The notes under the pieces were generated by a model, which was not told the origin of the DNA, did not search any database, and worked only from the letters and a program-made list of their open reading frames with translations. 64,000 bases of DNA from a virus. Numbering within the stretch: the stretch's first letter is position 1; each line of letters starts with the position of its first letter. The stretch is from the IMG/VR virus record IMGVR_UViG_3300044691_000477, positions 1-64,000 of that record. One strand, given 5' to 3'. Shown here piece by piece: positions 8,969 to 57,722 of the stretch. The translations under genes and the position numbers were made by a program.

Positions 8969-9253
8969 ATGAAGTACAGCCAGGACTACTGGGACTGGTA
9001 CAACTCCCTCGGCCCCATGGACCAGTACTTCGCCGATCTGCGGCGTGATGGCGATTGGTTCATGAAGTGGCTTATCAACCCCGCTTGCTGGCTGTTCGGC
9101 CTCTTCGTGGTCCTGATCATCGTGGCGTCGTTGTTCGGCAGCAGCGGACCATTCGCGCACCAGTCATGCCAGACCCTGCCGACGACGGATGGCAATACAG
9201 GCGTGACCTCCACTTACACATCCTGTGAATCAGTTGGCCCGTTCTGGTGGTAG
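8969..9253 (+). CDS. Small membrane protein (moron, opposite strand to tail genes)
   Basis: 94 aa with one hydrophobic helix (CWLFGLFVVLIIVASLFG). It has its own promoter and RBS and is wedged between the tape measure and the chaperone extension. Confidence 0.7.
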   Translation: MKYSQDYWDWYNSLGPMDQYFADLRRDGDWFMKWLINPACWLFGLFVVLIIVASLFGSSGPFAHQSCQTLPTTDGNTGVTSTYTSCESVGPFWW

Positions 9254-9466
9254 TCACACGGGCATTCCTTCCTCGTCAGTAGTGCCGCTGGTGCGGACGT
9301 CCTGAGACACACGGAACCAGTACTGGCGCTCTCTGCGGTTCAAGCCCTTCACCTCCGTCAGCGTCCACGGGAAGACCCGTGCGATGGCCTCGTACTCCAC
9401 GAACAACGACTGGTAGTTAGTCGCCGCGAAACATGTCCCGCGTCGTGATCGGAAGCGGGAACTCAC
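9254..9466 (-). CDS. Tail assembly chaperone extension frame (T-like part; probably expressed by frameshift from 9417..10376)
   Basis: Overlaps the upstream ORF by 50 nt in the +1 frame. The protein-like sequence FVEYEAIARVFPWTLTEVKGLNRRERQYW begins inside the overlap. Confidence 0.45.
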   Translation of the reverse strand: MSSRFRSRRGTCFAATNYQSLFVEYEAIARVFPWTLTEVKGLNRRERQYWFRVSQDVRTSGTTDEEGMPV

Positions 9467-10376
9467 GAATGCACTCGGGGCACTCCTGCTTCACCTCGAG
9501 GTACTGCGGGCCGGGCTGGCCCTCGCTCACGAACTCGACCAACTTCTTGCGGTCACGCGCCGTCATCTTCAGCACCGGGCTGGGACCGTTGACGGGCTTG
9601 CCATCGATGTTGTCGAGCAACTCGGCGAGCATCAGGGTGTTGAGCTCTTCGGCGGTCTTGGTCAGGTTGTCGGTCGTGTAGACCTTCTTCTGCGCCGTCC
9701 CGTCCATGAGCCTGATCGAGGCCATGGAACCGCTGCTCGGCAACTCGATGTCGAACAGCCGCTGCATCGGGTCGCCAGCGCCCTCGATGTTGAGCCCGCG
9801 GAGCGGCACGTCGTCTGCGAACGAGTAGTCGACCTGGAACTCGTGGTCGCAGAACGGGCAGACGATATCCAGCCGCATAGTGTCGCCGAAGGTCGACCGG
9901 CGAATCTGCATGATGAGCAGGTCGCGGTCGCCGATGAGCAGAGTGTCCAGGGCCTTCAGCAGCTCCTTACGGTCGCTGATCTCCCCGATGCGCACTGTGC
10001 CGACACGGACCAAGGTGTCGACGTAGCGCGCCATGTCCTGCGACGCCAGTGCTCGAGCGATGGCTTCCTCATCGGCGCCGGTCAGCTCCTTAACCTCGGC
10101 GTCGGTGAAGCGCTGGCCATCGGCGACGTAGCCACCGATGAGGGTGACCTTGCCGTCGGGCGGTCCGGTGATGGAGAAGTCCTCCGTGGACTTCTCGAGT
10201 TGCAGCGCAGCCGCTGACAGCGCATTGAACTTCTCAGGGTTCAGGTCGGCATCGACCGTCCCGTCTTCGGTCGGCGGCGGTGGGAAGCCTTGCGCGTCGA
10301 GTTGCACTCCTTCAGCGTCGAGCGCGACCTCCTCACCTCCATTCTCGAAGTCGATGGCCATCAGCGGCTGCGTCAC
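9417..10376 (-). CDS. Tail assembly chaperone (G-like), zinc-ribbon containing
   Basis: 319 aa between the tube and tape measure genes, with CPFC...CPEC. The call rests on position. Confidence 0.55.
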   Translation of the reverse strand: MTQPLMAIDFENGGEEVALDAEGVQLDAQGFPPPPTEDGTVDADLNPEKFNALSAAALQLEKSTEDFSITGPPDGKVTLIGGYVADGQRFTDAEVKELTGADEEAIARALASQDMARYVDTLVRVGTVRIGEISDRKELLKALDTLLIGDRDLLIMQIRRSTFGDTMRLDIVCPFCDHEFQVDYSFADDVPLRGLNIEGAGDPMQRLFDIELPSSGSMASIRLMDGTAQKKVYTTDNLTKTAEELNTLMLAELLDNIDGKPVNGPSPVLKMTARDRKKLVEFVSEGQPGPQYLEVKQECPECIREFPLPITTRDMFRGD

Positions 10377-15412: not shown

Positions 15413-15949
15413 TCAGCCGCTCCATCGAGCGAAGGCAGCGCTGTCAACCAGTTCGTCGGGACGAAGTTGGGTGGCTTCGACACGGAGCACAGTGTCGGCA
15501 CTTGCCTGTTCGAAGTGTCCACTGGTCTGCACGGCGTCCACGTCGAATACCCGGTTACGGAAGACGAAGCGGTCGAGTTGGCGCAGTTCACGGTCCTGCA
15601 CCAGATTCCTGTCCAGGCCAGCTCGTCGGACCTGCTCGTAACTCATGACCAGCGTCATGTGGTCGTAGCTGGCGTAGCCACCCTCAGCAGCTTCCTCTTC
15701 GCCCTGCGCTGGCACCGCTGACAGCACTGGGATCCGCAGCGGGCCGATGTAGGAGCGGCCACCGCCGACGAAGCCCTCGTCGTAGATGTCATCGACCTGG
15801 GTGGTTGCGACGTCGAGGAAGAACCACAGCACCTCGGTGCCGTAGACCTGCTGGTAGTCCTCCATGCCGGCGTCGATTCGTCGCCGCTCGTCCTTGACGC
15901 CGAAGAACCGACCTCGAGGTCGGTTGAAGAAGCGGGTTCCTCCGCTCAC
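15413..15949 (-). CDS. Hypothetical head-tail joining protein
   Basis: 178-aa ORF with GTG start, coupled to the upstream small ORF by a GTGA overlap. Confidence 0.7.
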   Translation of the reverse strand: MSGGTRFFNRPRGRFFGVKDERRRIDAGMEDYQQVYGTEVLWFFLDVATTQVDDIYDEGFVGGGRSYIGPLRIPVLSAVPAQGEEEAAEGGYASYDHMTLVMSYEQVRRAGLDRNLVQDRELRQLDRFVFRNRVFDVDAVQTSGHFEQASADTVLRVEATQLRPDELVDSAAFARWSG

Positions 15950-16104
15950 TTCACCACTCGCAGCTTGGGGCGCTTCGGCTTTGGCTTACCGTCGACCAGA
16001 TGCGGGTCGTTCTTCAGAGCCGTGTCGATCTGCTCGTCCAGCGAAGGCTCAGTCGGCAATGAGTCCAACAGCCGGTCGGTCCTCTTCACCTTGAACTGCA
16101 GCAT
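15946..16104 (-). CDS. Small hypothetical protein (52 aa)
   Basis: Own translation: MLQFKVKRTDRLLDSLPTEPSLDEQIDTALKNDPHLVDGKPKPKRPKLRVVK. It fills the gap, has high GC3 and a GTGA overlap downstream. It is below the track cutoff. Confidence 0.45.
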   Translation of the reverse strand: MLQFKVKRTDRLLDSLPTEPSLDEQIDTALKNDPHLVDGKPKPKRPKLRVVK

Positions 16105-16121
16105 GGACAGAACGTCGCCGC

Positions 16122-17273
16122 TCACGGGGTGTTGCCGAAGAACGAGTGCGGGTCTACCTGATCGAAGCCGCTGCCGGTGACGCCGAGGTTGCGAGGAGCG
16201 AAGACGCGAAGGGGGGGAGTCCTCACGTCGTCGTACTCGCGGTCGACGTACACAGGCACCAGCTTGCCGGTCGTCCTCGAGACCCTCCGCAGAGTGAAGA
16301 CCTCCACCCGGCCCAAGCCGACACCCAACTTGGCTGCGAGATCGTCGTACATCGCCTGCTTGGTGGCCATAAGCTGTGCGATGTTGCGGAACCGCTCGGT
16401 GCGCGGCAGCGATGTGCCCTCCGCAGTGGTGACGTCGATGTCGTAGGCGACGTCGGTCTGGATGACCTCGAGGGCTTCGGTGGCAGCGAGCAGCGCGACC
16501 AGGTGGTACTCGACTGGCGCGAGACCGTCGACCGTCTGGTTGGTGTAGAGGAAATGCTTGAAGCCGTCAGGGTCCCGGTAGACCTGGAGATCCTCCGAGC
16601 TGTGTGTGTGCTTCAGCGCCGCTGAACGCAGGAACAGGTCGAGCTCGTCGTCGGTGAAGAACTGGTAGTGCACGCCCGTCATGGTTAGCGTCGACTCGTG
16701 CGCCAGTGCATCGGGCAGCGTGATGACGCCGGCTTGTGCATCCAGGTCGTAGTCGGTGGGCGCCAGGGTCACTGGGTTGCCCTCCTCGTCAGTGAGGATC
16801 ACCGACAGCCCAGTGGTGCTGATGACTTCCTGGGGCAGATCGAAGCGCCGGGTGAAGCCGTCGCCCGTGACCGATGTCTGGAAGCGCTCTTGGTAGTCGC
16901 CGAGCTCCATCCGCAGACGCTTTCGGATCGCGACGGTAGCGGGGCTGGCCGGGTCAGGGACCGGCTCTGGCTGCTCACGTGGCGGGATGACGCCGGCGAG
17001 GGGATCGGGAACGACGAGCGGAGCCGCACTGCTCTGACTGGGGATGTTGTCCAGGGTGCCGAGCACCGGAATGTAGGTACCGTCTGGTAGCAAACGCGGC
17101 ACCGTGATGGTGACGCTGGTGCCACGGTCCACGATGAACTCGCACTCCCACTGCAGTCCGTCGGTGTCGACCAACGCCGCGGAGGAGACTCTTCCGAAGC
17201 CGGTACCGATGAGCTGCAGGGTGTCGGCCCTCACGATGGGACCGCCGTAGCCGGTGATGATCGGCGTCAGCAA
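16122..17273 (-). CDS. Hypothetical virion protein with Ig-like N-terminal domain
   Basis: 383-aa ORF in the head module. The N-terminal ~90 aa look like a beta-rich IPT/TIG-type domain. Confidence 0.7.
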   Translation of the reverse strand: MLTPIITGYGGPIVRADTLQLIGTGFGRVSSAALVDTDGLQWECEFIVDRGTSVTITVPRLLPDGTYIPVLGTLDNIPSQSSAAPLVVPDPLAGVIPPREQPEPVPDPASPATVAIRKRLRMELGDYQERFQTSVTGDGFTRRFDLPQEVISTTGLSVILTDEEGNPVTLAPTDYDLDAQAGVITLPDALAHESTLTMTGVHYQFFTDDELDLFLRSAALKHTHSSEDLQVYRDPDGFKHFLYTNQTVDGLAPVEYHLVALLAATEALEVIQTDVAYDIDVTTAEGTSLPRTERFRNIAQLMATKQAMYDDLAAKLGVGLGRVEVFTLRRVSRTTGKLVPVYVDREYDDVRTPPLRVFAPRNLGVTGSGFDQVDPHSFFGNTP

Positions 17274-21804: not shown

Positions 21805-23596
21805 TCATGTCGCGTTATCGGTGTCCGCTGCTGGCGGGCGCCGGGTGGCGAGTTGAGTGCCGTAGGCACGAGTGTTGAGCCTGGTCATGAGCTCCTGAGT
21901 CTCGGACGACATCGGTACACCCATCCCACCCATCGGGGGCATACCCGCTGCGCCAGTACCGGCATCGGTCGCCCCGGCCTGCTGCACATCGCCACCCGCA
22001 CTGGCACCAGACGCTCCTGCCACAGGGGGCGGGAACGGCTGGGGCTGACCGGGAATGAACTGACCCGTCTCCTGCTGCACGATCTGCGAGATCTGCGCAC
22101 GGATCATGTCGAGCGACCCCTGGTCGATGGCGTCCTGCACGAGTTCGAGGAAGGTCTCGCGCAACTTCTCGTTGGGGAAGACCTCACCAAGCTCCTCGAG
22201 GGCGTCCTTCTTCGACACCAGGCCCATCTGCATCTTGAGCATGAGCTCGTTGAGGACAACGATCTTGTCGACCGGCAGCGGCGGCGGGAAGTGCACGACG
22301 GTCACGAAGGTGATCGGGTCATCAACGTCGAGAACTGGCTGCTGGTAGGACTCGAGCTCCTCGTCCTCGGTCGGCGACCAGGAAAACGCCTGTGGCTCGT
22401 TGACAGCCAGTGTCAGCAGGGCCAACTCGTTGATGCGCTTGTAGAGCTTCCCGTAGGTCATCTTCTTGTGGTCATAGCGCTGCATCATCGGCTGATACTG
22501 GATGGCGAGTGCGACGCCGCTGGTGTTGCTGATCGGCTGTACGTCACCGAGTGCGCCCTCAGGTACGCCGGTCAACTCGTGCATGGCCTTCTTGACCATC
22601 TCGAGGTACTTCAGCCCGGCCTCGACACCACCGCCGGCGAGTTCGAGGTTGAAGACGTTGGCGTCCTTGGGAAGCCCGCCCCAGATCTTCTTTGCGCCCT
22701 TCTCGAGCTGCGAGGACTTCGCGCCGGTCATGACTGTCACTGGAGCCGCGTGGTAGTTCACGATGTCAGAGACATCGGTCGCCTTCTCGTTGTACTCACG
22801 GTTGAGAATCGTGATGTCAGCAATGTCGCTCAGGCCCCACGGGCTGCCGCTGACCATGATGTTCGGCGACACCGCAATGGGCACCGTGCCGAGCGGGTTC
22901 GGGCGCGCATCTACGAGTTGGTCGTTGATGTACTCCTCGATGTAGGTCTCGCTGATCAGCTCGGTGTAGGTGAAGACCTGGCGAGTGCCCTCAGGAGATG
23001 TCCCCCAGAAGCGGTACTTCTGCTTGAACCGGAGCAGCCGCTCCTTGTCATGCGGGTGCCACTCAGGGAAGCACTGCGCCGCGTTGAGCGGCATGATGCG
23101 CACTCGCCCTGGGTGGAACCGCTGCAGCACACCGGGAATGGGCTGACCGTCCTGGTCGACGCCCGACATCCAGCCTTCCTCGTAGGCGACCTTGCAGAAG
23201 ACATCGCCTGAAACGCTGCCCTGGTTGCCTAGCTCCCAGATCACCGTCGGCTTGTGGTTGTCGGTCTCCCAGACTCGCTCCATTAGCGCCGGCACGATGT
23301 GCTCGGTCTCCTTGGGACTGCGGAAGTTGACGCCGCGTCCGAAGCAGAAGTTGGTGATGAAGTCAGAGAACGCCTTGACGTAGTTGAAGGTGAGCTGCGG
23401 CTCACCCGGCTCACGGCGGTAAGACCAGTGGTGTCCTAGGTAAAAAGCCCAGCTAATTGTGGGCGTAACGGTTCAGGCGAGGTCCATGGACCTCGAACTC
23501 CTCATCCGCTAGCTCAACCAGTCCCAGGGGACTGATCGCGATGGTGAGGTCTGAACCAGCCGCCCGATACGAGGGGGAACTGAAATCAACTGTCAT
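21805..23596 (-). CDS. Portal protein (SPP1 gp6-like), reading frame broken by an apparent +1 shift at 23456..23472
   Basis: The main frame is open from 23472 but has no start codon before GTG 23295. Those 59 codons are protein-like (AFYLGHHWSYRREPGEPQLTFNYVKAFSDFITNFCFGRGVNF). A 47-codon ORF at 23453..23596 with GGAGGTG RBS supplies the N-terminus. Confidence 0.8.
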
Positions 23597-23902
23597 CTCT
23601 GCTTCACCTCCGACCCGACGATCTGGGCGCTCAGATACTGCGCCGCCCTGACTAGCGTGTCAGGGTCGTCGCCGAAGTAGCCGAGACCCTGGTTGCACCT
23701 GTTGCAGAGTAGGCCGCGCACGGCTCCAGTCGTGTGACAGTGGTCGACGCAGATCTTGCTCACCTCAGCCAGCGGGGTCAGACAGATGCCGCAGCGCCCG
23801 AGTTGCTCGTACGGCAGTGAGACGTGCGTGCTCCCGGTCTTTGCCGATGAACGCGTGCAGCGGGTGCCTGGTCGGGTTCAAGACCTTCGTCTTCGTGGTC
23901 AC
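23593..23902 (-). pseudogene. Endonuclease VII-family (HNH-like) nuclease, frame-disrupted
   Basis: GTG 23902 opens frame A (VTTKTKVLNPTRHPLHAFIGKDREH). The domain LPYEQLGRCGICL..VDHCHTTGAVRGLLCNRCNQGLGYFGDDP lies in the +1 frame, ending at 23593. The span is 310 nt. Confidence 0.6.
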
Positions 23903-23944
23903 GATGTGATGGTCCCCTGAGTCGTGGTCCGAGTGGTGGAGAGG

Positions 23945-24268
23945 CTAGTGGTAGCCGTGCGGCCACCCATATCGGTTGTAGTCGATAACTGGCACGTGGC
24001 TGGCCCCCAGGTCCATCAGCGACGCGGCGCGATGGTGCCCGTCCTTCACCTTCCCGGTCTGCATGTCCATGAGCACAGGATTCTGCACACCGTGCTCTGC
24101 AATGCTGTCGCGCAAGTCGTCATACCCACCTCGAGCACGTACTTCGTTCCAGTCCTTGCCGGCGTCGACGGGCTCACCAGGAACCGCATGCTTGGTGAAG
24201 GTCTTCATGCTCAGGTGATGGACGTCCAGACCCTGCCACTGCCTGCCGAGAGCCCGCGGGGCGCTCAT
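23945..24268 (-). CDS. ParB/Srx-like nuclease-domain protein (paralog 1)
   Basis: ATG 24268 (ATGA coupling). DLRDSIAEHGVQNPV..KVKDGHHRAASLMDLGASHVPV is a ParB N-terminal domain pattern. Confidence 0.75.
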   Translation of the reverse strand: MSAPRALGRQWQGLDVHHLSMKTFTKHAVPGEPVDAGKDWNEVRARGGYDDLRDSIAEHGVQNPVLMDMQTGKVKDGHHRAASLMDLGASHVPVIDYNRYGWPHGYH

Positions 24269-33204: not shown

Positions 33205-33382
33205 GCCGACGCCGGGGCGGGTGCGTTGGCCTCGCCCCAAACGTTGCCAAGCCGACAACGGCGGCAAGCATCGTTGGGAGTACGCCAAGGATCGAACGCG
33301 GCGAGAGTGCCGGAAGTGCGGCGCAGGTCAGGTGCCCAAGCAATCGAACGACAGCAGCAGCCAGGAGGCCGACCGTGGCTGA
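33197..33382 (+). CDS. Small zinc-ribbon protein
   Basis: 61 aa starting MSEP and ending KQSNDSSSQEADRG, so it carries the junction cassette. Confidence 0.55.
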   Translation: MSEPTPGRVRWPRPKRCQADNGGKHRWEYAKDRTRRECRKCGAGQVPKQSNDSSSQEADRG

Positions 33383-33653
33383 CTTGCGGTGCCGCTGTGT
33401 CTGGCGCGAGGAACGCTGCCAGAACTCCGCCACGCAGGAGGACGGACTGTGCAACTGGTGCGGCAACGGGCGGACCCCCGAGCAGATGCTGGATGACCCG
33501 AAGGCGCTCATTGGCCCCGACGGGGAGTTCTTCGGTATCGGTGGGGCCGGGCAACTCCACGACTCCCGCCCTGGCTCACCGGGAGCCTGCTGGTACCCCG
33601 ACAGCAACCGGACGATCACGCAATCGAACGGCAGCAACGGGGCGGGGTCGTGA
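33375..33653 (+). CDS. Cys-rich hypothetical protein
   Basis: GTG 33375 (VADLRCRCVW..). Ends TQSNGSNGAGS. Confidence 0.55.
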   Translation: MADLRCRCVWREERCQNSATQEDGLCNWCGNGRTPEQMLDDPKALIGPDGEFFGIGGAGQLHDSRPGSPGACWYPDSNRTITQSNGSNGAGS

Positions 33654-38233: not shown

Positions 38234-38532
38234 GCGTTGATGGGCTTGCACTTCGGGCAGTAGTCACGAGCCGCGTCGCCAGCTCCGACCGTCACCAGCT
38301 CATCGGGCGAGAAACACTCGACGCAGTGCCTGCGCGCAACTTCTCGGACGGGGGGCTGGAGGATCTCGGGGGAGTCCACACCACCGTCAGTCCCTTCGGG
38401 AGCACTGTCCCCGGCGCTGGCCGTCGTCTCGGCCACTGCTTCAAGATCTGGCGCAACTGCTTCTTCCTGCACTTTCTCCTTGGGAGCCGCCACTGTCTTC
38501 TTTGCAGGCGCCTTGCGGGGTCGAGAACTCAC
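38230..38532 (-). CDS. Zinc-ribbon protein
   Basis: 100 aa with CVEC...CPKC. Confidence 0.6.
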   Translation of the reverse strand: MSSRPRKAPAKKTVAAPKEKVQEEAVAPDLEAVAETTASAGDSAPEGTDGGVDSPEILQPPVREVARRHCVECFSPDELVTVGAGDAARDYCPKCKPINA

Positions 38533-40760: not shown

Positions 40761-42599
40761 TCAGAGCTCGATGGCATCTGCGAACACAGGATTGAGACCC
40801 CACCCTGCAGCGATCTCGAGCTTGCGAAGTTTGGACATCGACGCACTGATGGTGCTGCTCGATGGTGAGTAGCCACACGCCTCCGAAGCAATCGTGTTGT
40901 TGGTGAAGCCCGACGGTCCCTCCTGCTCGTAGATGTCGAGCAGGTGGGTCAGCAGCGCATTCTCGGTCTTGCCGAGTCGGGTCTGCCACCACTTCAGCAG
41001 CGCCGGGCCGCTCGGGAGTTCCTCGTACTCGCCGAGCGCTTCGACTCCTTCCGGGGTCGCCATGATGGGTCCTGAAAGCGTGACGTAGCCCATCTTGCGG
41101 AGCTTGGACAACGAGGCGCTGACGGTCGAACTCTTCGGCGAGTAGCCGGCCTGCATCGCGATCTGGCTCTGCGTACGAACACCGTGGGTGACCAGCACGG
41201 TCAGCACCGAACGCTCGGTCTTGCCGAGTTTCACGTCACTGTCGCCACTGCCTCGCGTGCGGGCGGGGGGTGAGGTGGGAAAGGGGTTGCGCTTCGCAAC
41301 GATGCCACCCAGCCGTCCACCCGCAACCTCGGCCACGTCCAGCAGTCGATCCATCTGCTGCTTCTGCCGGGAGGGGTCGATGCCGACGTTGAGCTTCTCG
41401 CCGGCGAACACCTTGTCCACGATGCTGAGTTGCCACGGCGCCAGCACGACCCCCAAGTCCTTGACGAAGGAGGAGAAGTCCTCCATGAAGCCCTTGAGCT
41501 CGCTGCGCACCTCCTCGACCGTCGGCAGATCAACGCAGTTGTCCTGGGAGTCGATGGCCTGCTCTGCGCTGGCCAACTCGGCCTCAGCCATCTGGGCGTG
41601 CTGCTCAGCCGCCTCAACCTGCTGCTGGAGCATTGCGACATCTCCCTGGAGGGCCTGAATGCGGCGCTTGAGTTCTCGCGGGTCGTTCTCCTTGGCTCGC
41701 TCGACGGTAGCGGCGATCTCGGCTCCGAGCGCGTCCAGGTCAACTTCAGTCGCCATCGTCGGGCTGACGGACCGCTTACCAGGTTCCGGGGTCTTGTGGC
41801 TGTCGAACGTCTCGCAGAGGTTGATGTGAACTCGCTGCAGCGTCTTCAGGAACGCCGGCGACCAGATCCATGCCTCGCCGACCTCTAGTTTGGGCAGCGA
41901 ACCGATGACGGTGGTGTTCTCGTCATCGGCGTTGACCTCGATCCACTCCTTCACCGCCTTGATGCTGCGGGTGCCGGTCATGCCGAGCAGGAAGACCGTC
42001 TCGCACAGCTCGAGCACGCTCTTGGCGATCTCCTGCGGTCGCTGGGTGATGACGGTCAGCCCGAGACCTCGCCCTCGCCCGCGCTTGGCGATGTCCTCCA
42101 TGGCTCCGAGCAGCCGGGCGGTGTCGGCGCTGGCCCGCTGCGGTATCAGCACGTCCGCCTCGTCAATGACGACCATGAGGCTCTCGCGGTTGCGGAAGTA
42201 GAGCCGCTCGGCGAAGTCGGTCGCGAAGCTGCGTGCCTTGGTCTTGGACATGTGGCTCATGTCGAGTACGCACGGGATGCGTCGGTCCACGATGAGGTCG
42301 GCCATCAGCGTGCCGGCTGTCGCCTCGAGCGGGACGTCGGCGTGGTCGCCGCCGAAGATGACGAAGGGGAGTCCTTTGCTCTTGCCGTCACGAGAGCTGC
42401 GCAGCCCCCACCAATCGCCTTTCACGTCGAGAACGACGACTGGCAGTTGCTGGTGGTAGAGCTGCTCCACGATGACGGTGGCTGTGTTGGACTTGCCCTT
42501 GCCCTTGTTCGCCAGGACGGCGAACGTTTCCGTCACTGCCTCCCGCGGCATGCTCAGGTCGGGGGCCAACACAATTCCCCTGCGCCGTCGAGTGGCCAT
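40761..42599 (-). CDS. HerA/FtsK-superfamily ATPase with C-terminal tandem winged-helix repeats
   Basis: ATG 42599. Walker A LANKGKGKSNTA, Walker B LMVVIDEADVL, LTVITQRPQEI. Duplicated GYSPKSSTVSASLSKLRKMGYV / GYSPSSSTISASMSKLRKLEIA. Confidence 0.75.
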   Translation of the reverse strand: MATRRRRGIVLAPDLSMPREAVTETFAVLANKGKGKSNTATVIVEQLYHQQLPVVVLDVKGDWWGLRSSRDGKSKGLPFVIFGGDHADVPLEATAGTLMADLIVDRRIPCVLDMSHMSKTKARSFATDFAERLYFRNRESLMVVIDEADVLIPQRASADTARLLGAMEDIAKRGRGRGLGLTVITQRPQEIAKSVLELCETVFLLGMTGTRSIKAVKEWIEVNADDENTTVIGSLPKLEVGEAWIWSPAFLKTLQRVHINLCETFDSHKTPEPGKRSVSPTMATEVDLDALGAEIAATVERAKENDPRELKRRIQALQGDVAMLQQQVEAAEQHAQMAEAELASAEQAIDSQDNCVDLPTVEEVRSELKGFMEDFSSFVKDLGVVLAPWQLSIVDKVFAGEKLNVGIDPSRQKQQMDRLLDVAEVAGGRLGGIVAKRNPFPTSPPARTRGSGDSDVKLGKTERSVLTVLVTHGVRTQSQIAMQAGYSPKSSTVSASLSKLRKMGYVTLSGPIMATPEGVEALGEYEELPSGPALLKWWQTRLGKTENALLTHLLDIYEQEGPSGFTNNTIASEACGYSPSSSTISASMSKLRKLEIAAGWGLNPVFADAIEL

Positions 42600-48038: not shown

Positions 48039-48331
48039 GGCCCCTCCACCTTGTCTGCAACCCGAGCGACCGCTCCGGTGAGTTCACGTAGTGCATTGAC
48101 GAGGTTGATCTCGTGCTCAGCGGTGGCGTCGACCAACCGCCCTGTCTGCGCAGCCAGCCGTAGCGTTGCCCACACCTGCGCGTCGGCGAGTGCGAGGGCC
48201 TGACATTCGCGCTCCTCCAGGCGCCAACTCCGCGCAAGCGCCTCGATGGCACGTGCACCGAGAGTGGCCGGGTCATCCAGGTCAGCCTCGAAGACCTTGA
48301 TGGCACGTTGTTCAGCGTCGTACTTGGCCAT
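48035..48331 (-). CDS. Hypothetical protein
   Basis: 98-aa ORF. Confidence 0.6.
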   Translation of the reverse strand: MAKYDAEQRAIKVFEADLDDPATLGARAIEALARSWRLEERECQALALADAQVWATLRLAAQTGRLVDATAEHEINLVNALRELTGAVARVADKVEGP

Positions 48332-48969
48332 CAGTCCTGTACCCCTAACCAGCCGAGCAGGTCGTGCAACGACGGGGCGAGGTAGTCAACCAGGCCGTAC
48401 ATCAACTCGGGCTCCATCGGATCCTCGAGCAGAATGGCGGTGCGCTTGCCCATCCCCACAGCCCAGCCGAGCTCGAGGTGCGCCGAGCGGTTGCACGGCA
48501 ACACCAGCACCATGGTGTCTGCCTGCCGCATGGCGCTGTAGTCGCTGCGAAGACCGTCTCTGGCGAGCGAGTTCTTCATGCCGGCGAGGTAGGCGTCGAC
48601 GCTCACCCCGCCGTTGAAGTCGCGGTCCATCGTGATGTCAGCCCAGCGGAAAGGAGACATCTTCCTGTTGGACATGGGGAGCTTCGGGTTCTTGAAGTCG
48701 TAGCACGGCATCCCGGCAGCCTCGAGCGTCTTCACGACACATTCCTGCATCGTGTTGCGCCAGGAGCTGGCCACATAGATGTACTGCGGGTTGGCCGGCA
48801 GCATCGGCACTGCATAGGTCGACAGCGACCCGCAGGCGGCGTAGCCGTTTGGATGCCTCCAGCACACCGGGTCATCCGACGGGTCCCAGTCGGGCTCCCA
48901 GTTCTTGCTGCCATAGGTGCGTTCCTCGATCAAGTCCCTGCAGTTGACGCAGTGGTTGGCGACGGTCAT
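48331..48969 (-). CDS. Nucleoside 2-deoxyribosyltransferase-like protein with N-terminal CxxC
   Basis: YIYVASSWRN..ADTMVLVLPCNRSAHLELGWAVGMGKRTAILL. Confidence 0.6.
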   Translation of the reverse strand: MTVANHCVNCRDLIEERTYGSKNWEPDWDPSDDPVCWRHPNGYAACGSLSTYAVPMLPANPQYIYVASSWRNTMQECVVKTLEAAGMPCYDFKNPKLPMSNRKMSPFRWADITMDRDFNGGVSVDAYLAGMKNSLARDGLRSDYSAMRQADTMVLVLPCNRSAHLELGWAVGMGKRTAILLEDPMEPELMYGLVDYLAPSLHDLLGWLGVQD

Positions 48970-50927: not shown

Positions 50928-51029
50928 TCACCTCTCCCGCTCGAGCAACTCGAGCAGCGCCGTCGCCTCCTGCAGGTCCATCGTGACCGTGATCTGCGGT
51001 GAGACCGCCTTGACCGTGCTCTCTGCCAT
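50928..51029 (-). CDS. Very small ORF (33 aa)
   Basis: MAESTVKAVSPQITVTMDLQEATALLELLERER, with GGAGCAC RBS. Confidence 0.35.
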   Translation of the reverse strand: MAESTVKAVSPQITVTMDLQEATALLELLERER

Positions 51030-51093
51030 GTCCGTGCTCCAGGTGAGTGATCCGAAGGGCGCACCGTACCAACTACCGCGACGCCGCGCTGCC

Positions 51094-51474
51094 CTATCGC
51101 AGCTCTGCCACCCACCTCGGCAGCTCGGGCAGCGCCACGTGCTGTGTGGCCAGCGGGTGCGTGCAGTCGCTGAGGAACTGGAAGACACCGGCCACCAGAT
51201 GGCTGTGACAGACGAAATCACCGACATTGTTGCTGCCCTCGACGTCTGCAGCCTTCGTCGTGGTCAGGATGGAAGGCGTGAGGGTCGGCGCCTCGAGGTT
51301 GCCGTCGAAGCCCCAGACAGGGTGCTTGCTGGGGTCACCGCTGATCGGCAGCATGTTCAGCCCGCGCGTGCGCGTCCCGTCAGCGTCGATCCGCTCGCAG
51401 CCCGGGCACCAGAACATCAGCGCAACGTAGCTGCCGCCGGCACCGTCGCTGAGCGAGCGCAGCCTCGACCTCAC
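51094..51474 (-). CDS. Small CxxC/CH-motif protein of a widespread phage family (possibly DUF6527-type; that label is an unchecked recollection)
   Basis: GTG 51474 (GTGA coupling). FWCPGCERI..PVWGFDGNLEAPTLTPSIL..FVCHSHLVAGVFQFLSDCTHPLA. Confidence 0.65.
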   Translation of the reverse strand: MRSRLRSLSDGAGGSYVALMFWCPGCERIDADGTRTRGLNMLPISGDPSKHPVWGFDGNLEAPTLTPSILTTTKAADVEGSNNVGDFVCHSHLVAGVFQFLSDCTHPLATQHVALPELPRWVAELR

Positions 51475-51743
51475 AGCGCACCACGATGCACGTCGAATGT
51501 CGCAGCCGCCGCCTGCTCGTGCGTCAGCCCGGCATCCCTGAACTCGAGGTAGTGCCGCTGCGCCTGCGCCAGCATCGCCCGAGCCCCGAGGAAACTCACC
51601 ACGACCTCGAAGCAGACCACTCCCACAGCAGCGACCCAGCGCCCTCCCATCACCAGGTACGCCGTCCAGGCAACCGTCGCCCACAGCCACACCCGAGGCA
51701 TCCGGTACGCCGGCCACCAGCCCATCCTTCGCATGCCCTCCAT
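51471..51743 (-). CDS. Membrane protein (2 TM), first gene of arm 3; start uncertain (51743-51776)
   Basis: WLWATVAWTAYLVMGGRWVAAVGVVCFEVVVSFLG. Confidence 0.55.
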   Translation of the reverse strand: MEGMRRMGWWPAYRMPRVWLWATVAWTAYLVMGGRWVAAVGVVCFEVVVSFLGARAMLAQAQRHYLEFRDAGLTHEQAAAATFDVHRGAL

Positions 51744-51776
51744 CCTGCCACCCAACTGCCGTAGGACCAGCCACAT

Positions 51777-52669
51777 CCGCGGCAGTTCTGGCTGCGCATG
51801 CGCGCCTTCCCCCGAACTCCCGCAACCGTTTATTGCCGCAATATCCGTCACACATCCGCATAAGCGCATGGACGCATGCCCTCACCTCGACCAGGCGCGC
51901 CACTGCCTCGAATATCCCCGTGATATCACCCCAATTTTCGCCACTGCCTTGTGGGCATGAGCGCCAGGAATCGGTGTGGTCGGGCCGCTCCAGCCGGTGG
52001 AAACGGTTAAGGGTAGGGGGGGGTCCTATTCACGCATGCTCATGGATATTCAGCCTATTTGCTGCGTGCCGGCGTGCATTCCATCTCAGCATGTGGACCA
52101 ATATTCAGCCTATTTAATCCCAGCATGTAGACCATTTATTGCTGTGTTTTATGCAGCCGTGCCACTGTATTTATGCATGGCTGCGCGCGAGTTCGACAGG
52201 CCCGGGCCGGGGCGTCAGAAGGCACGTGGTGTTGTTATGAAGGCACGTGGTGTTGTTACGTATGTTGGTACGTATGTTGGTACGCACCTAGGTGATGCTG
52301 AGCGTGCTGGGCATGTAAATGCAGGCAATAAACATGCACGTGTGAGCGTGTGAGCACAATGAATGTGCTGGTGCGTGCACTGGTGTGAGCGTGAGACAAC
52401 GGTGTTGGTTCGTTGTGTTGTTGTCTCTCTCTTCTCTATGTGTTCATCGCTCTATCGAGCGTTCCTTCGGGCCGCGGATTGGTGCGAGCATGGGTGACCC
52501 GAGCGGTGGTGTGAGCGTGGGCTGGTGTGCACGCTCTACTTCGTACAGACGGGTGCTCTTCTTCCCCGGCCAGCGCGCGGTGCGTCCTTGTGCAACGTCA
52601 TGGTTCTTGGGGGCGCTACTCGCTACGCTGGTGCTTTCCTCTCGGGAGCACTACCTACTAGGAGCACAG
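51777..52669. repeat. Non-coding, locally low-GC, repeat-rich divergent intergenic region
   Basis: Direct and tandem repeats read directly; see the finding for coordinates. Track ORFs here translate the repeats and look non-protein-like. Confidence 0.7.
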
Positions 52670-52957
52670 ATGTGCGCGAAGTGTGAACTCATCGAAGGCT
52701 TGGTTGACCAGATCAACGCCGGCACTCGTCCTATCGACCGCGAGCTGATCAGCGCGATGATCAGCCAGTGGAGCCATGTGTTCGAGGAGATGCAGACGGA
52801 CATCGCCAGCGACAAGCCGTGGCTGCAGTTGCTCGAGGAGCTCGGTGAAACCATGCTCAAGTTGTCGCTGGTGATGCGGTACAACACCGAGAACACAGTG
52901 CTGCGGGCGATGCTCGCCGAGCAGATGCGCATCGCCAACATCGTACGGAGCAACTGA
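52670..52957 (+). CDS. Hypothetical protein
   Basis: ATG 52670 (AGGAGCAC RBS and leader). 95 aa. Confidence 0.7.
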   Translation: MCAKCELIEGLVDQINAGTRPIDRELISAMISQWSHVFEEMQTDIASDKPWLQLLEELGETMLKLSLVMRYNTENTVLRAMLAEQMRIANIVRSN

Positions 52958-52961
52958 ACCG

Positions 52962-53534
52962 ATGGACATCATCATGCGCCCTCGTCAGGGCGGTAAGACC
53001 TACGAGATGGTTCAGCTCCTTGTCGCCGAGGAAGACGCTGTGCTCATCTGCGCCAACTCACAGCACAAGGAGAGCCTGCGCAACCTCGTCCGCCAAGTCG
53101 TGCGCGAGAAGTACACCGCGGGGGGTCATCAGGCTGCCTCCAGGAAGATCGACCTGGTGATGAGCCGTGTCTACGTCGCTCGTGAGTCACGCAACGCGCA
53201 CTACAACGGGCGTGTACTGGTCGATGGCATCGAGTACGTGCTGCAGGCGCTTCTTGGTCCTATCGACGTCGCGACCATGGACATGCCGCGTCGTGCCGGC
53301 AGCGAATACCGCGTGCATTTCGAGGATCAGCGGCTAGCAGCAGCATGGGCGTACGAAGACCAGCACCGTGACGAGCAGCAGATCTACGGCACTGGCACAC
53401 GCACGACGCCGAACACGTTCCTGCAGGCCAGCGCTCCCACCCCTGACGAGATGGTCAAGAAGGTCGCTGAGTTGACAGGCGCCTCCGAGGCTGAGGTGCT
53501 CGGTGTCGCGCTGGGTCTGGACAAGCAGCCGTGA
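52962..53534 (+). CDS. P-loop-containing hypothetical protein
   Basis: MRPRQGGKTYEM is Walker A-like. 190 aa. Confidence 0.6.
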   Translation: MDIIMRPRQGGKTYEMVQLLVAEEDAVLICANSQHKESLRNLVRQVVREKYTAGGHQAASRKIDLVMSRVYVARESRNAHYNGRVLVDGIEYVLQALLGPIDVATMDMPRRAGSEYRVHFEDQRLAAAWAYEDQHRDEQQIYGTGTRTTPNTFLQASAPTPDEMVKKVAELTGASEAEVLGVALGLDKQP

Positions 53535-56219: not shown

Positions 56220-57722
56220 CTACGTTACGCGCTTCCCGTCCACAATGCGTGTCGCCAAGATGTCGGTCTGCTGTGGGTCTTGATGGTCGATCTGCGCAAC
56301 TGGCGGCGCCGCTCCGAACAGCCGGGACAGCGCGCCGGTCTTGCCGCGCGCTTCGATGCTCACCTTGAGGAAGTCGCGGTTGTCCTCGAGGTCGGCCTGT
56401 ACCTGCATAGCCTTCAGGAAGCGGTCGTACTCCTGGCTCAGGTTGGGGTCGGGATACCCGCCGTTCATCTGCTCCACGAAGTAGCCGAACTGCACTCGTT
56501 GCGCCTGCATCTCGAGCATTCCGGTCATGAACGCCTTGCGCTGCTCAGGCGTCTTGATCTCGGTCGGGATGTCGTAGGCGCACGTCGAGTTGGCCTTGGC
56601 CTTGTCACACTTGTCCCTCACCACACACGAGTCACAACGCCTCGAGCTCTTTCCCCGGACCTCGAGAAGTGGGATGGAGACCACTTCGCCCTGCTGCCCT
56701 GTGAGCACCGTCTCGACCATCCGGGTCCCGAACATCGGCAACGTCGTGCTGTCGCCCTCAGCGCGCTCCAGGAGTGCAGGACGGGCCACCTGCGTCTTCC
56801 CGTCCCCGGAACCTTGCGTACCAACTACGTCAGTGCCTGTTGCCGTGTTGTCGTCCCCACCCTCCCACTCAACGTAGTTACTACGTTCGGTCTCCCAGTT
56901 GGTACGAAACGCCTTGAGAGCCTTCTCCTGCTCGAGCCACGACCACACGGCCAGCCGCAACACCTCGTTCTTGTCGTCGGCAGCGATCTTGTCAGCGTCG
57001 AAGTCCTCGTCCTCGAACAGCGCGCGGTGCCGCATCCGTGCCTGGTCCTTCATCCGCTTGGGGTAGCGCTGGAGCTGGTTGTTGACCCAGACGATGGTGT
57101 CGCCGTACTGACCTGGTGACAGCCACGAGGTGCTGGCGGCAGTGGCGAAGGCCACCTGTCGCAGCATCGTGGGCTTGGTCATGGCCACCCCGTGCAGCTT
57201 CACGCCCTTGCGGACGAGCGCGTTGAGTTGAGGGGTGATGTTGAGGCCCTGGCTGGTCATGGCGGTCTCGGTGATGCCGATGCGTCGGTAGTTGTCCCCG
57301 AGCTCCTCCAGGGCCGGGAGACCCTGCTCTGGGTGCCAGATCGGCATGAACTTCTCAGGGTCGATCTGGCTCCACGCCTCACGGCGCATCATCTTGATCC
57401 ACTCCGGTCCCAGGACCATGGCGTCGAACTCAGTCACCAGTGCCAGGTCATCGATGTGGGTGATCGCGAAGTCGACGTAGCCCTCGCCGTACTTCTTCCA
57501 CTCGCCGACGGTGAGCTGGTTGGGGTCCTTGTTGGCACTGAAGCCGCCGCTGTCGAGCAGGATGGACTCGAAGTCGAACCGGCTCAGGTCCACGCTGTCC
57601 AGGCTCTTGCGGCGCTTCTTCCAGCTCCAGTACGAGATCCCGAGGTTCTGGACACCACACTCGCTCAGCAGGGTCCTCCAGCCGGCCTGTTCGCCGCCCA
57701 TGAAAAACAAAGAGAAACTCAT
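56220..57722 (-). CDS. tRNA-guanine-transglycosylase-fold / DpdA-like DNA transglycosylase with an unrecognised ~250-aa C-terminal extension
   Basis: ILLDSGGFSA (TGT DSGGF motif) and VKLHGVAMTKPTMLRQVAFATAASTSWLSP. The C-terminal half includes RRCDSCVVRDKCDKAKANSTCAYD. Confidence 0.65.
   Translation of the reverse strand: MSFSLFFMGGEQAGWRTLLSECGVQNLGISYWSWKKRRKSLDSVDLSRFDFESILLDSGGFSANKDPNQLTVGEWKKYGEGYVDFAITHIDDLALVTEFDAMVLGPEWIKMMRREAWSQIDPEKFMPIWHPEQGLPALEELGDNYRRIGITETAMTSQGLNITPQLNALVRKGVKLHGVAMTKPTMLRQVAFATAASTSWLSPGQYGDTIVWVNNQLQRYPKRMKDQARMRHRALFEDEDFDADKIAADDKNEVLRLAVWSWLEQEKALKAFRTNWETERSNYVEWEGGDDNTATGTDVVGTQGSGDGKTQVARPALLERAEGDSTTLPMFGTRMVETVLTGQQGEVVSIPLLEVRGKSSRRCDSCVVRDKCDKAKANSTCAYDIPTEIKTPEQRKAFMTGMLEMQAQRVQFGYFVEQMNGGYPDPNLSQEYDRFLKAMQVQADLEDNRDFLKVSIEARGKTGALSRLFGAAPPVAQIDHQDPQQTDILATRIVDGKRVT

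Follow-up and report, generated by a model that had tools for sequence, protein, structure and literature searches.

Probable joined genome ends at the gene-free divergent junction of a high-GC myophage related to Streptomyces phage BRock

We analysed a 64,000-nt stretch of viral DNA (positions 1 to 64,000 of IMG/VR record IMGVR_UViG_3300044691_000477; here, the window) with a focus on its one large non-coding region at 51735-52669 (here, the gap). The gap occupies a divergent junction between a minus-strand gene of 87 amino acids (aa) at 51471-51734 and a plus-strand gene of 95 aa starting with the ATG at 52670. We consider it likely that the gap represents the two physical ends of a linear phage DNA which were joined during assembly, and that it comprises a short direct terminal repeat (DTR) serving in cutting and packaging together with the leader of the first genes.

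The region had been described in an earlier note, made from the letters alone, as repeat-dense, as lacking a convincing open reading frame (ORF) and as the longest non-coding stretch of the genome, and all three descriptions were borne out. The 935 nt are empty in the database gene calls of the matching public contig (L001, positions 9066-10000), where they form the largest called gap, and where a crude gene map showed other apparent gaps, long ORFs or database gene calls fill them. Direct reading, repeat finders and pattern searches with shuffled controls recovered every repeat that the note had listed, as well as its AT-rich stretch and its G8 run (52016-52023). In a sliding 900-nt scan, segment 51701-52600 topped the window, with 177 nt lying in repeated 10-mers against a median of 24 (standard deviation, 27), and the G+C content (GC) was 0.48 over 52040-52190 as opposed to ~0.64 for the window. 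The 15-mer ATATTCAGCCTATTT was found twice, at 52046 and 52101 (0.09 expected by chance), and CAGCATGTRGACCA twice, at 52087 and 52121. These are followed by a 21-bp tandem repeat in two exact copies containing CACGTG (52218-52258; 0 expected) and a 12-bp tandem repeat of 2.8 copies (52251-52284). Farther on, GTGTGAGCGTG occurs exactly three times (52340, 52383 and 52509), with the variant GTGTGAGC at 52348, and has no other exact copy in the window.

A variant of ~98% identity (L002, with a fragment, L003) differs from the window across the gap by insertions or deletions (indels) of 1, 2, 3, 5 and 8 nt, by a G5 run in place of G8 and by a rearranged tandem array. Since the indels break the reading frames, no ORF across the gap can be real. 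This bears on the possibility that the gap gives rise to small conserved proteins or to a structured non-coding RNA, which the earlier note had named as evidence against its own reading; Rfam, folding and the comparison of ORFs between strains gave no support to either. Several ORFs of 75-125 aa can be drawn, and there is a perfect 8-bp hairpin at 52388-52432 in which the changes in L002 are confined to the loop. However, indels of 1, 2, 5 and 8 nt between these near-identical strains break every ORF and the gene callers leave the gap empty. Rfam was null both at the gathering threshold over the whole window and at E ≤ 1 over the gap region, and folding was no better than that of shuffled sequences (z = +0.61 and +0.53). 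A search for transfer RNA (tRNA) and transfer-messenger RNA genes also found nothing, and we regard an RNA or protein product of the gap as very improbable.

The nature of the gap was suggested by comparison with related phages. The window belongs to the genome of a ~108-kb high-GC myophage (GC ~0.64) encoding a large terminase, an SPP1-type portal, a DpdA-like transglycosylase and a HerA/FtsK ATPase fused to winged-helix domains. Its nearest deposited relatives, distant ones, are the Streptomyces phages BRock, LuckySocke, Alone3, GiJojo and pSt2308, all with myophage genomes of 112-116 kb (cluster BS, genus Borockvirus). Its large terminase shares 49.6-51.6% identity with theirs over 93-98% of its length, and DpdA is 36-38% identical. 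Neither megablast nor blastn found a match to the DNA of the gap itself among 50,697 phage records. Local tblastx against a rebuilt BRock genome revealed two collinear blocks, the first joining window 0.7-28 kb to BRock 65.4-90.0 kb (tail, capsid, portal and terminase, with the major capsid and portal proteins collinear with their BRock counterparts) and the second joining window 56.3-60.5 kb to BRock 16.1-19.6 kb (the DpdA block). The ends of the BRock genome therefore map between 28 and 56 kb of the window.

Exact DTRs are present in the linear records of BRock (221 bp), LuckySocke (344 bp), GiJojo (197 bp) and Alone3 (197 bp). The BRock repeat was reported by its authors from double read coverage with sharp margins (PMC7453282), and the 197-bp repeat of GiJojo has also been published (PMC11465772). 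At the left end of BRock, 868 gene-free nt lead into a forward arm (gp1-gp27), which converges with the reverse-strand DpdA block; at the right end, 412 gene-free nt separate the reverse-strand genes from the terminus. Joining the two ends with one DTR copy gives a divergent junction of ~1 kb (about 1.06 kb gene-free). In the rotated record of pSt2308 the same junction is internal, at 15902-17055, with one DTR copy, and it is likewise internal, again with one copy, in an IMG/VR contig ~100% identical to LuckySocke (L046). These two records show how such ends look once assembled: assemblers collapse the two DTR copies into one, and the former ends become a divergent junction, devoid of genes, in the interior of the contig. 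Within the window, the BRock pattern of reverse arm, gap, forward arm, convergent junction and DpdA block was found only at 51735-52669.

The circular map was consistent with this. Both ends of a Logan contig of 107,496 bp (SRR24887436_7214) are 100% identical to the window, which bridges them with 350 extra nt (33248-33597), and the joined map is a circle of 107,846 bp holding one copy of the predicted repeat, as expected from a collapsed DTR.

To place the boundaries, rules were drawn from the four DTRs present at both record ends (two of them with published read-coverage confirmation) and from that of pSt2308, assigned by homology. In the orientation of the window, the DTR of all five relatives starts GG[CG][CG]..CC, and a terminal box, TTAAAGGT(A)GGGGG(G)(T)C, starts exactly 26 nt later; in BRock this box occurs only in its two DTR copies. 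At the other end, all five carry GGCTACTG, then exactly 36 nt ending CC(A/C)CCC, the boundary, and TAGT. The rule of CYACTG, 36 nt and the boundary (CYACTG-N36) holds for BRock, LuckySocke, GiJojo and Alone3, and by homology for pSt2308.

In the window, the box TTAARGGT(R)GGGGG had a single match, at 52007-52020 on the correct strand (0.03 expected), spaced 25-26 nt from the sequence /(C)GGGCC (slash, boundary). The best window match to a profile built from the five deposited left ends fell at 52001-52033, with an E value of 0.1 over the 128 kb searched and a far smaller one if the search is restricted to the syntenic 1 kb. By the 26-nt rule, the left boundary would lie at 51981 (/CGGGCCGC), or at 51982 if the repeat starts with GGGCC, within about ±3 nt. 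In the 520 nt after the box there is only one CYACTG, at 52162-52167, and 36 nt farther on the sequence reads ...CGACAGGCCC/GGGCC, which places the putative right boundary at 52203/52204. The predicted DTR (51981-52203) would measure 223 bp, compared with 221 bp in BRock and 197-344 bp among the relatives. The parts of the region, all on the plus strand, are as follows.

51735..51980, plus strand: non-coding spacer (right-end side of the predicted terminus) that separates, according to gene calls, the 87-aa minus-strand gene, at its start, from the predicted repeat; it holds CGCCACTGCCT twice (51898 and 51939), a near-palindrome (51909-51940) and the box AATCGGTGTG (51969-51978).
51981..52203, plus strand: predicted DTR of ~223 bp, as a single collapsed copy, from the spacing rules and synteny.
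52007..52025, plus strand: terminal box TTAAGGGTAGGGGGGGGTC, including the G8 run, conserved in the DTRs of the relatives.
52046..52134, plus strand: lineage-specific internal repeats A (ATATTCAGCCTATTT) and B (CAGCATGTRGACCA), in the order A..B A..B.
52162..52203, plus strand: putative right-end box, CCACTG followed by 36 nt ending in CGACAGGCCC, from the CYACTG-N36 rule.
52218..52286, plus strand: GT-rich tandems (21 bp in two copies with CACGTG, 12 bp in 2.8 copies) just outside the predicted DTR, polymorphic in copy number between strains.
52340..52519, plus strand: dispersed GTGTGAGCGTG (three copies) and GTGTGAGC in the forward-arm leader, candidate regulatory sites.
52388..52441, plus strand: perfect 8-bp hairpin GAGACAAC/GTTGTCTC (52388-52432), found as an inverted repeat and a terminator-like match, then the conserved pyrimidine box TCTCTTCTCTATGT (52428-52441).
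52657..52672, plus strand: ribosome-binding site ACTAGGAGCAC (AGGAG) and the ATG of the first forward-arm gene, by direct reading; the 11-mer is identical in the metagenome contig L136 (below) before its first forward gene.

On this map, the predicted DTR takes in the AT-rich patch, the G8 run and both the 15-mer and the 14-mer pairs, and the 21-bp and 12-bp tandems and the three copies of GTGTGAGCGTG fall just outside it, in the forward-arm leader (52204-52669). Besides the A and B repeats, a related CCTATTCAC is found at 52025. The DTR interiors of the relatives are similarly full of short repeats of their own, namely CTATTCA in BRock, TTTGCA/GCAAT in other cluster BS phages and ATATGTCC in a group of IMG/VR contigs (group C, below), and the A and B repeats are candidate binding sites for the packaging machinery. 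Downstream of the predicted DTR, the tandems of L002 and L003 comprise three 21-mer-like copies and a different 12-mer array. Motifs resembling (G)CTGTGAG or GTGTGAG are also present downstream of the DTR in BRock, pSt2308, GiJojo and LuckySocke. The 14-mer TCTCTTCTCTATGT is identical in BRock, ~220 nt past its DTR, and has counterparts in L136 (CTCTCTCTTGTATGT) and in LuckySocke and pSt2308 (TCTCTCTATGG).

Two observations on this map stand apart from the placement of the ends. The G run of the terminal box varies in length, with G8 versus G5 in near-identical strains and G5-G8 among lineages, variation which could be real or a homopolymer assembly error. In addition, a perfect 10-nt inverted repeat, GTTTATTGCC at 51828-51837 and GGCAATAAAC at 52324-52333, flanks the predicted DTR at ~145 and ~120 nt; it may be due to chance, as ~0.5 such pairs per kb are expected.

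An independent view of the junction came from L136, a 6,067-bp ENA metagenome contig (GC 0.67) found not by motif but through a neighbouring protein. The neighbours of the gap are the 87-aa membrane-like protein, a BubE/DUF6527 protein and orphan genes of 95, 190 and 300 aa, and it was the BubE/DUF6527 protein that led to L136 (60% identity). The contig is syntenic with the window, running from BubE through a gap and a forward arm to the end of DpdA. Its gap of 757 nt displays the same order of elements: GCCACTG twice; AATCGGTGTGACCGGGCC; 20 nt; GGTTAAGGGTGGGGGGG; direct repeats of its own (GAGAGTTGCTGTGTAsCAGGCA, twice); an AT-rich patch; GCCACTG and 36 nt ending in CGACGGGCCC; GT-rich tandems; CTCTCTCTTGTATGT; a hairpin; and ACTAGGAGCAC before the first forward gene. 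Collinear short-match analysis showed that AATCGGTGTG, GGTTAAGGGTRGGGGGG, CCACTG-N36 ending in GGCCC, the CTCTCTCTT box and the ribosome-binding site are kept between the window and L136; the GCCACTG pair of the spacer, like AATCGGTGTG, is collinear, as is CGACRGGCCCGG of the right-end box. The small genes flanking the gap have no detectable relation between the two, and the non-coding boxes are thus better conserved than the flanking genes.

Other routes to relatives of the junction were less productive. Of the six BubE contigs looked up, only L136 held it, L135 and L137-L141 carrying BubE in other contexts. The 300-aa forward-arm protein led only to the near-identical strain in the protein database and to nothing in IMG/VR, and DpdA led to no relative in IMG/VR. 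In Bacillus phage BCD7 (circular record; large terminase 39% identical), no terminal box was found in the segment where the ends should map. The box shared by the window and L136, AATCGGTGTGRYCGGGCC, was tried as a marker and rejected: none of its 125 loci in metagenome and viral contigs had a terminal box downstream, indicating chance matches.

Scanning IMG/VR with the terminal box alone also returned mostly chance matches. When context was considered, at least 25 IMG/VR loci from several lineages shared a G/C-rich edge, 26-28 nt and the box. These fall into group A (GC 0.67), group B (GC 0.67), group C (GC 0.51, contigs of ~111 kb) and the single locus L038, and groups A and B additionally carry GGCCACTG-N30-AGGCCC ~255 nt downstream. 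We advance, with a little less than even confidence, the broader proposal that TTAARGGTAGGGGGG at a fixed 25-28 nt from one DTR edge and CYACTG-N36 at the other may constitute an undescribed conserved signal for end recognition and cleavage. It would be shared by diverged phage lineages of ~45-115 kb (cluster BS, the window and L136, and at least three IMG/VR groups; GC 50-68%), with the intervening lineage-specific repeats as co-evolving binding sites. As a separate observation, five IMG/VR contigs (L020, L024, L082, L047 and L127; L020 and L047 are ~100 kb and L082 is 42 kb) carry TTAAGGGTAGGGGGGG, preceded by CCTGGC(G/C)GA and ~20 nt and followed by repeats of the CGGACAAA type. This box may mark termini in additional lineages.

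If the gap does represent joined ends, the virion DNA would carry the ~223-bp exact repeat (51981-52203) at both ends, and replication would produce concatemers with one repeat copy per junction. The terminase complex would recognise the junction by means of the terminal box TTAAGGGTAGGGGGGGG, 26 nt from the left boundary, the CCACTG-N36 element and the internal 15-mer and 14-mer repeats. It would then make two cuts at the boundaries, and the repeat would be duplicated as in T7-type phages. The forward arm would be the first DNA transcribed from the left end, and 52204-52669 would be the untranslated left-end leader, which holds the strain-variable GT-rich tandems, the three copies of GTGTGAGCGTG, the ribosome-binding site and the conserved CTCT...TATGT box. 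Forward-arm transcripts would have to begin inside this leader.

Several points weigh against joined ends. The placement of the termini, which draws on sequence and synteny, is unproven; a circular assembly is equally compatible with headful packaging; and the large terminase shares only ~50% identity with its counterparts in the DTR phages. The left-box profile match, at E = 0.1 over the whole window, is weak by itself. The right boundary is tentative, as it relies on one relative and a spacing rule: neither the window nor L136 gave a match to a profile of the five cluster BS right ends, and CCACCC/TAG is absent at 52203, where the boundary would follow GGCCC with the CCACTG-N36 spacing that is also kept in L136 and has a similar form in IMG/VR groups A and B. 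An alternative right boundary, CGCACC/TAGGTGATGC at 52288/52289, resembles CCACCC/TAGTAATGC. The HNH gene located beside the end in cluster BS phages is absent at the window junction. Finally, a scan of 51000-53500 for promoters of the sigma-70 type only gave none, in the leader or elsewhere in that span, whereas the equivalent leader of BRock has TTGACA-17-TACAAT at 663-691 (11/12 match).

A rival reading is a purely regulatory role, in which the gap would be a divergent control region of early promoters and operator-like repeats, the box a transcription signal, and the ends elsewhere or undefined (headful, permuted). The two arms diverge, a promoter is required for the first forward gene, the BRock leader has a near-consensus one, and both a DTR and permutation fit the circular assembly. 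However, wherever a relative's record has both DTR copies, the box keeps a constant distance of 26 nt from the edge of the repeat, which this reading does not explain; BRock has no box outside its DTR copies, no sigma-70-like site was found in the scanned region of the window or in L136, and the closest known large terminases are those of relatives with measured DTRs. We therefore consider a regulatory region without ends to be unlikely.

The earlier note had suggested a candidate origin, an iteron array, or a packaging or regulatory hub. Packaging gained support from the comparative evidence, in the form of joined termini; the origin and iteron suggestions gained no specific support, given the few copies and the lack of an adjacent initiator. 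In an origin, which could coexist with a terminus, the short direct repeats would act as iterons and the AT-richer 52040-52190 as the unwinding element. Such repeats do lie beside a stretch of GC 0.48, and the sign of the local GC skew changes at 51-53 kb (64 of ~108 kb analysed), but the coding strand switches at the same place, and this accounts for the change. Moreover, each repeat has only 2-3 copies, families longer than 14 nt have two exact copies, and the spacings are 55, 34, 21 and 12 nt, where an iteron array would have at least three regularly spaced copies of one 17-22-bp unit. No initiator, helicase or primase gene is adjacent, and the neighbours have no Pfam or PHROG replication matches. 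In BRock, the polymerase, primase, DnaB and DnaC genes are located 40-56 kb from the left end, and their counterparts are outside the window. An origin at this site thus appears quite improbable.

Elsewhere in the window, a few features were noted in passing. The break in the Logan contig (window 33248-33597) falls among small ORFs rich in Cys, where a ~20-nt repeat, GCAATCGAACGrCAGCA, is present at 33340 and again at 33621. The contig end (window 33247/33598) was considered as a terminus and rejected, being apparently coding, bridged by the 350 nt in the window and devoid of a terminal box. In the minus-strand region 21805-23946, the portal gene seems to be interrupted: agreement of the called ORF (21805-23295) with the SPP1 portal profile sets in no earlier than profile position 84, and portal sequence like that of BRock carries on upstream of the ORF, in frame, as far as ~23470 with no start codon. 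An Endonuclease-VII/HNH-like ORF lies just upstream, and 23296-23944 is left empty by the gene callers. An intron in the portal gene or a mobile HNH insertion may be the cause; no group I intron was detected by Rfam. Genes for DNA handling and modification at 40761-42599, 48331-48969 and 56220-57722 encode a HerA/FtsK-type ATPase with two fused winged-helix domains, a nucleoside 2-deoxyribosyltransferase-like protein and the DpdA-like transglycosylase, the last of which suggests 7-deazaguanine modification of the DNA. Segment 38118-38595 contains four copies of GCCACTG and a 21-bp tandem repeat (38470-38512), near a stretch of lower GC (39-41 kb, GC 0.59-0.60); in the whole window GCCACTG has 36 copies versus 19 expected, mostly on the plus strand.

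A terminus would account for the one large gene-free region of this genome without invoking a new element. Known ends would also fix the true gene order, with the starting point of packaging and the genes that are first to enter the cell. The conserved boxes are concrete candidate sites for terminase binding and cleavage and offer a way to place the termini of metagenome-only BRock-like phages from sequence, for which read-level confirmation is needed. If the proposed shared signal is real, short DTRs and their exact ends would be predictable in the metagenomic assemblies of this whole group.

A gap of this kind is ordinary for a short-DTR phage, and three known systems offer comparisons. Iteron-type origins (plasmid or lambda-like) share with it direct repeats beside an AT-richer patch in non-coding DNA; they differ in that the window copies are too few and irregular, no initiator gene is adjacent and the position is that of the relatives' genome ends. 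The concatemer junction of T7 and T3 reportedly consists of a 160-230-bp terminal repeat with flanking arrays of short repeats, followed by the early promoters. The likeness extends to the short terminal repeat, the adjoining short direct repeat arrays (the predicted DTR is flanked by the 21-bp, 12-bp and GTGTGAGCGTG repeats on its right and by the two copies of CGCCACTGCCT on its left), the long untranslated left end and the single repeat copy per junction, although the lineage and terminase are unrelated and no promoters of the T7 or sigma-70 type were recognised in the window.

The ends of BRock and the other cluster BS phages share with the window a homologous myophage backbone, the same arm architecture and a gene-free joined junction of ~1 kb. 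Within the junction, they share a box ~26 nt inside the left boundary (predicted in the window), a repeat-filled DTR, tentatively also CYACTG at 36 nt ahead of the right boundary, and, downstream, GT-rich (G)TGTGAG motifs and the CTCT..TATG box. They differ in GC (64% in the window versus 52-54%), in having no DNA similarity detectable by BLAST, in the length of the forward "early" arm (3.3 kb in the window versus ~12 kb), in the HNH gene and tRNA block that the window lacks by its end, and in the boundaries, which are predicted from the sequence as GGGCC.../...GGCCC in the window and read CTA/GG.../...CCACCC/TAG in cluster BS.

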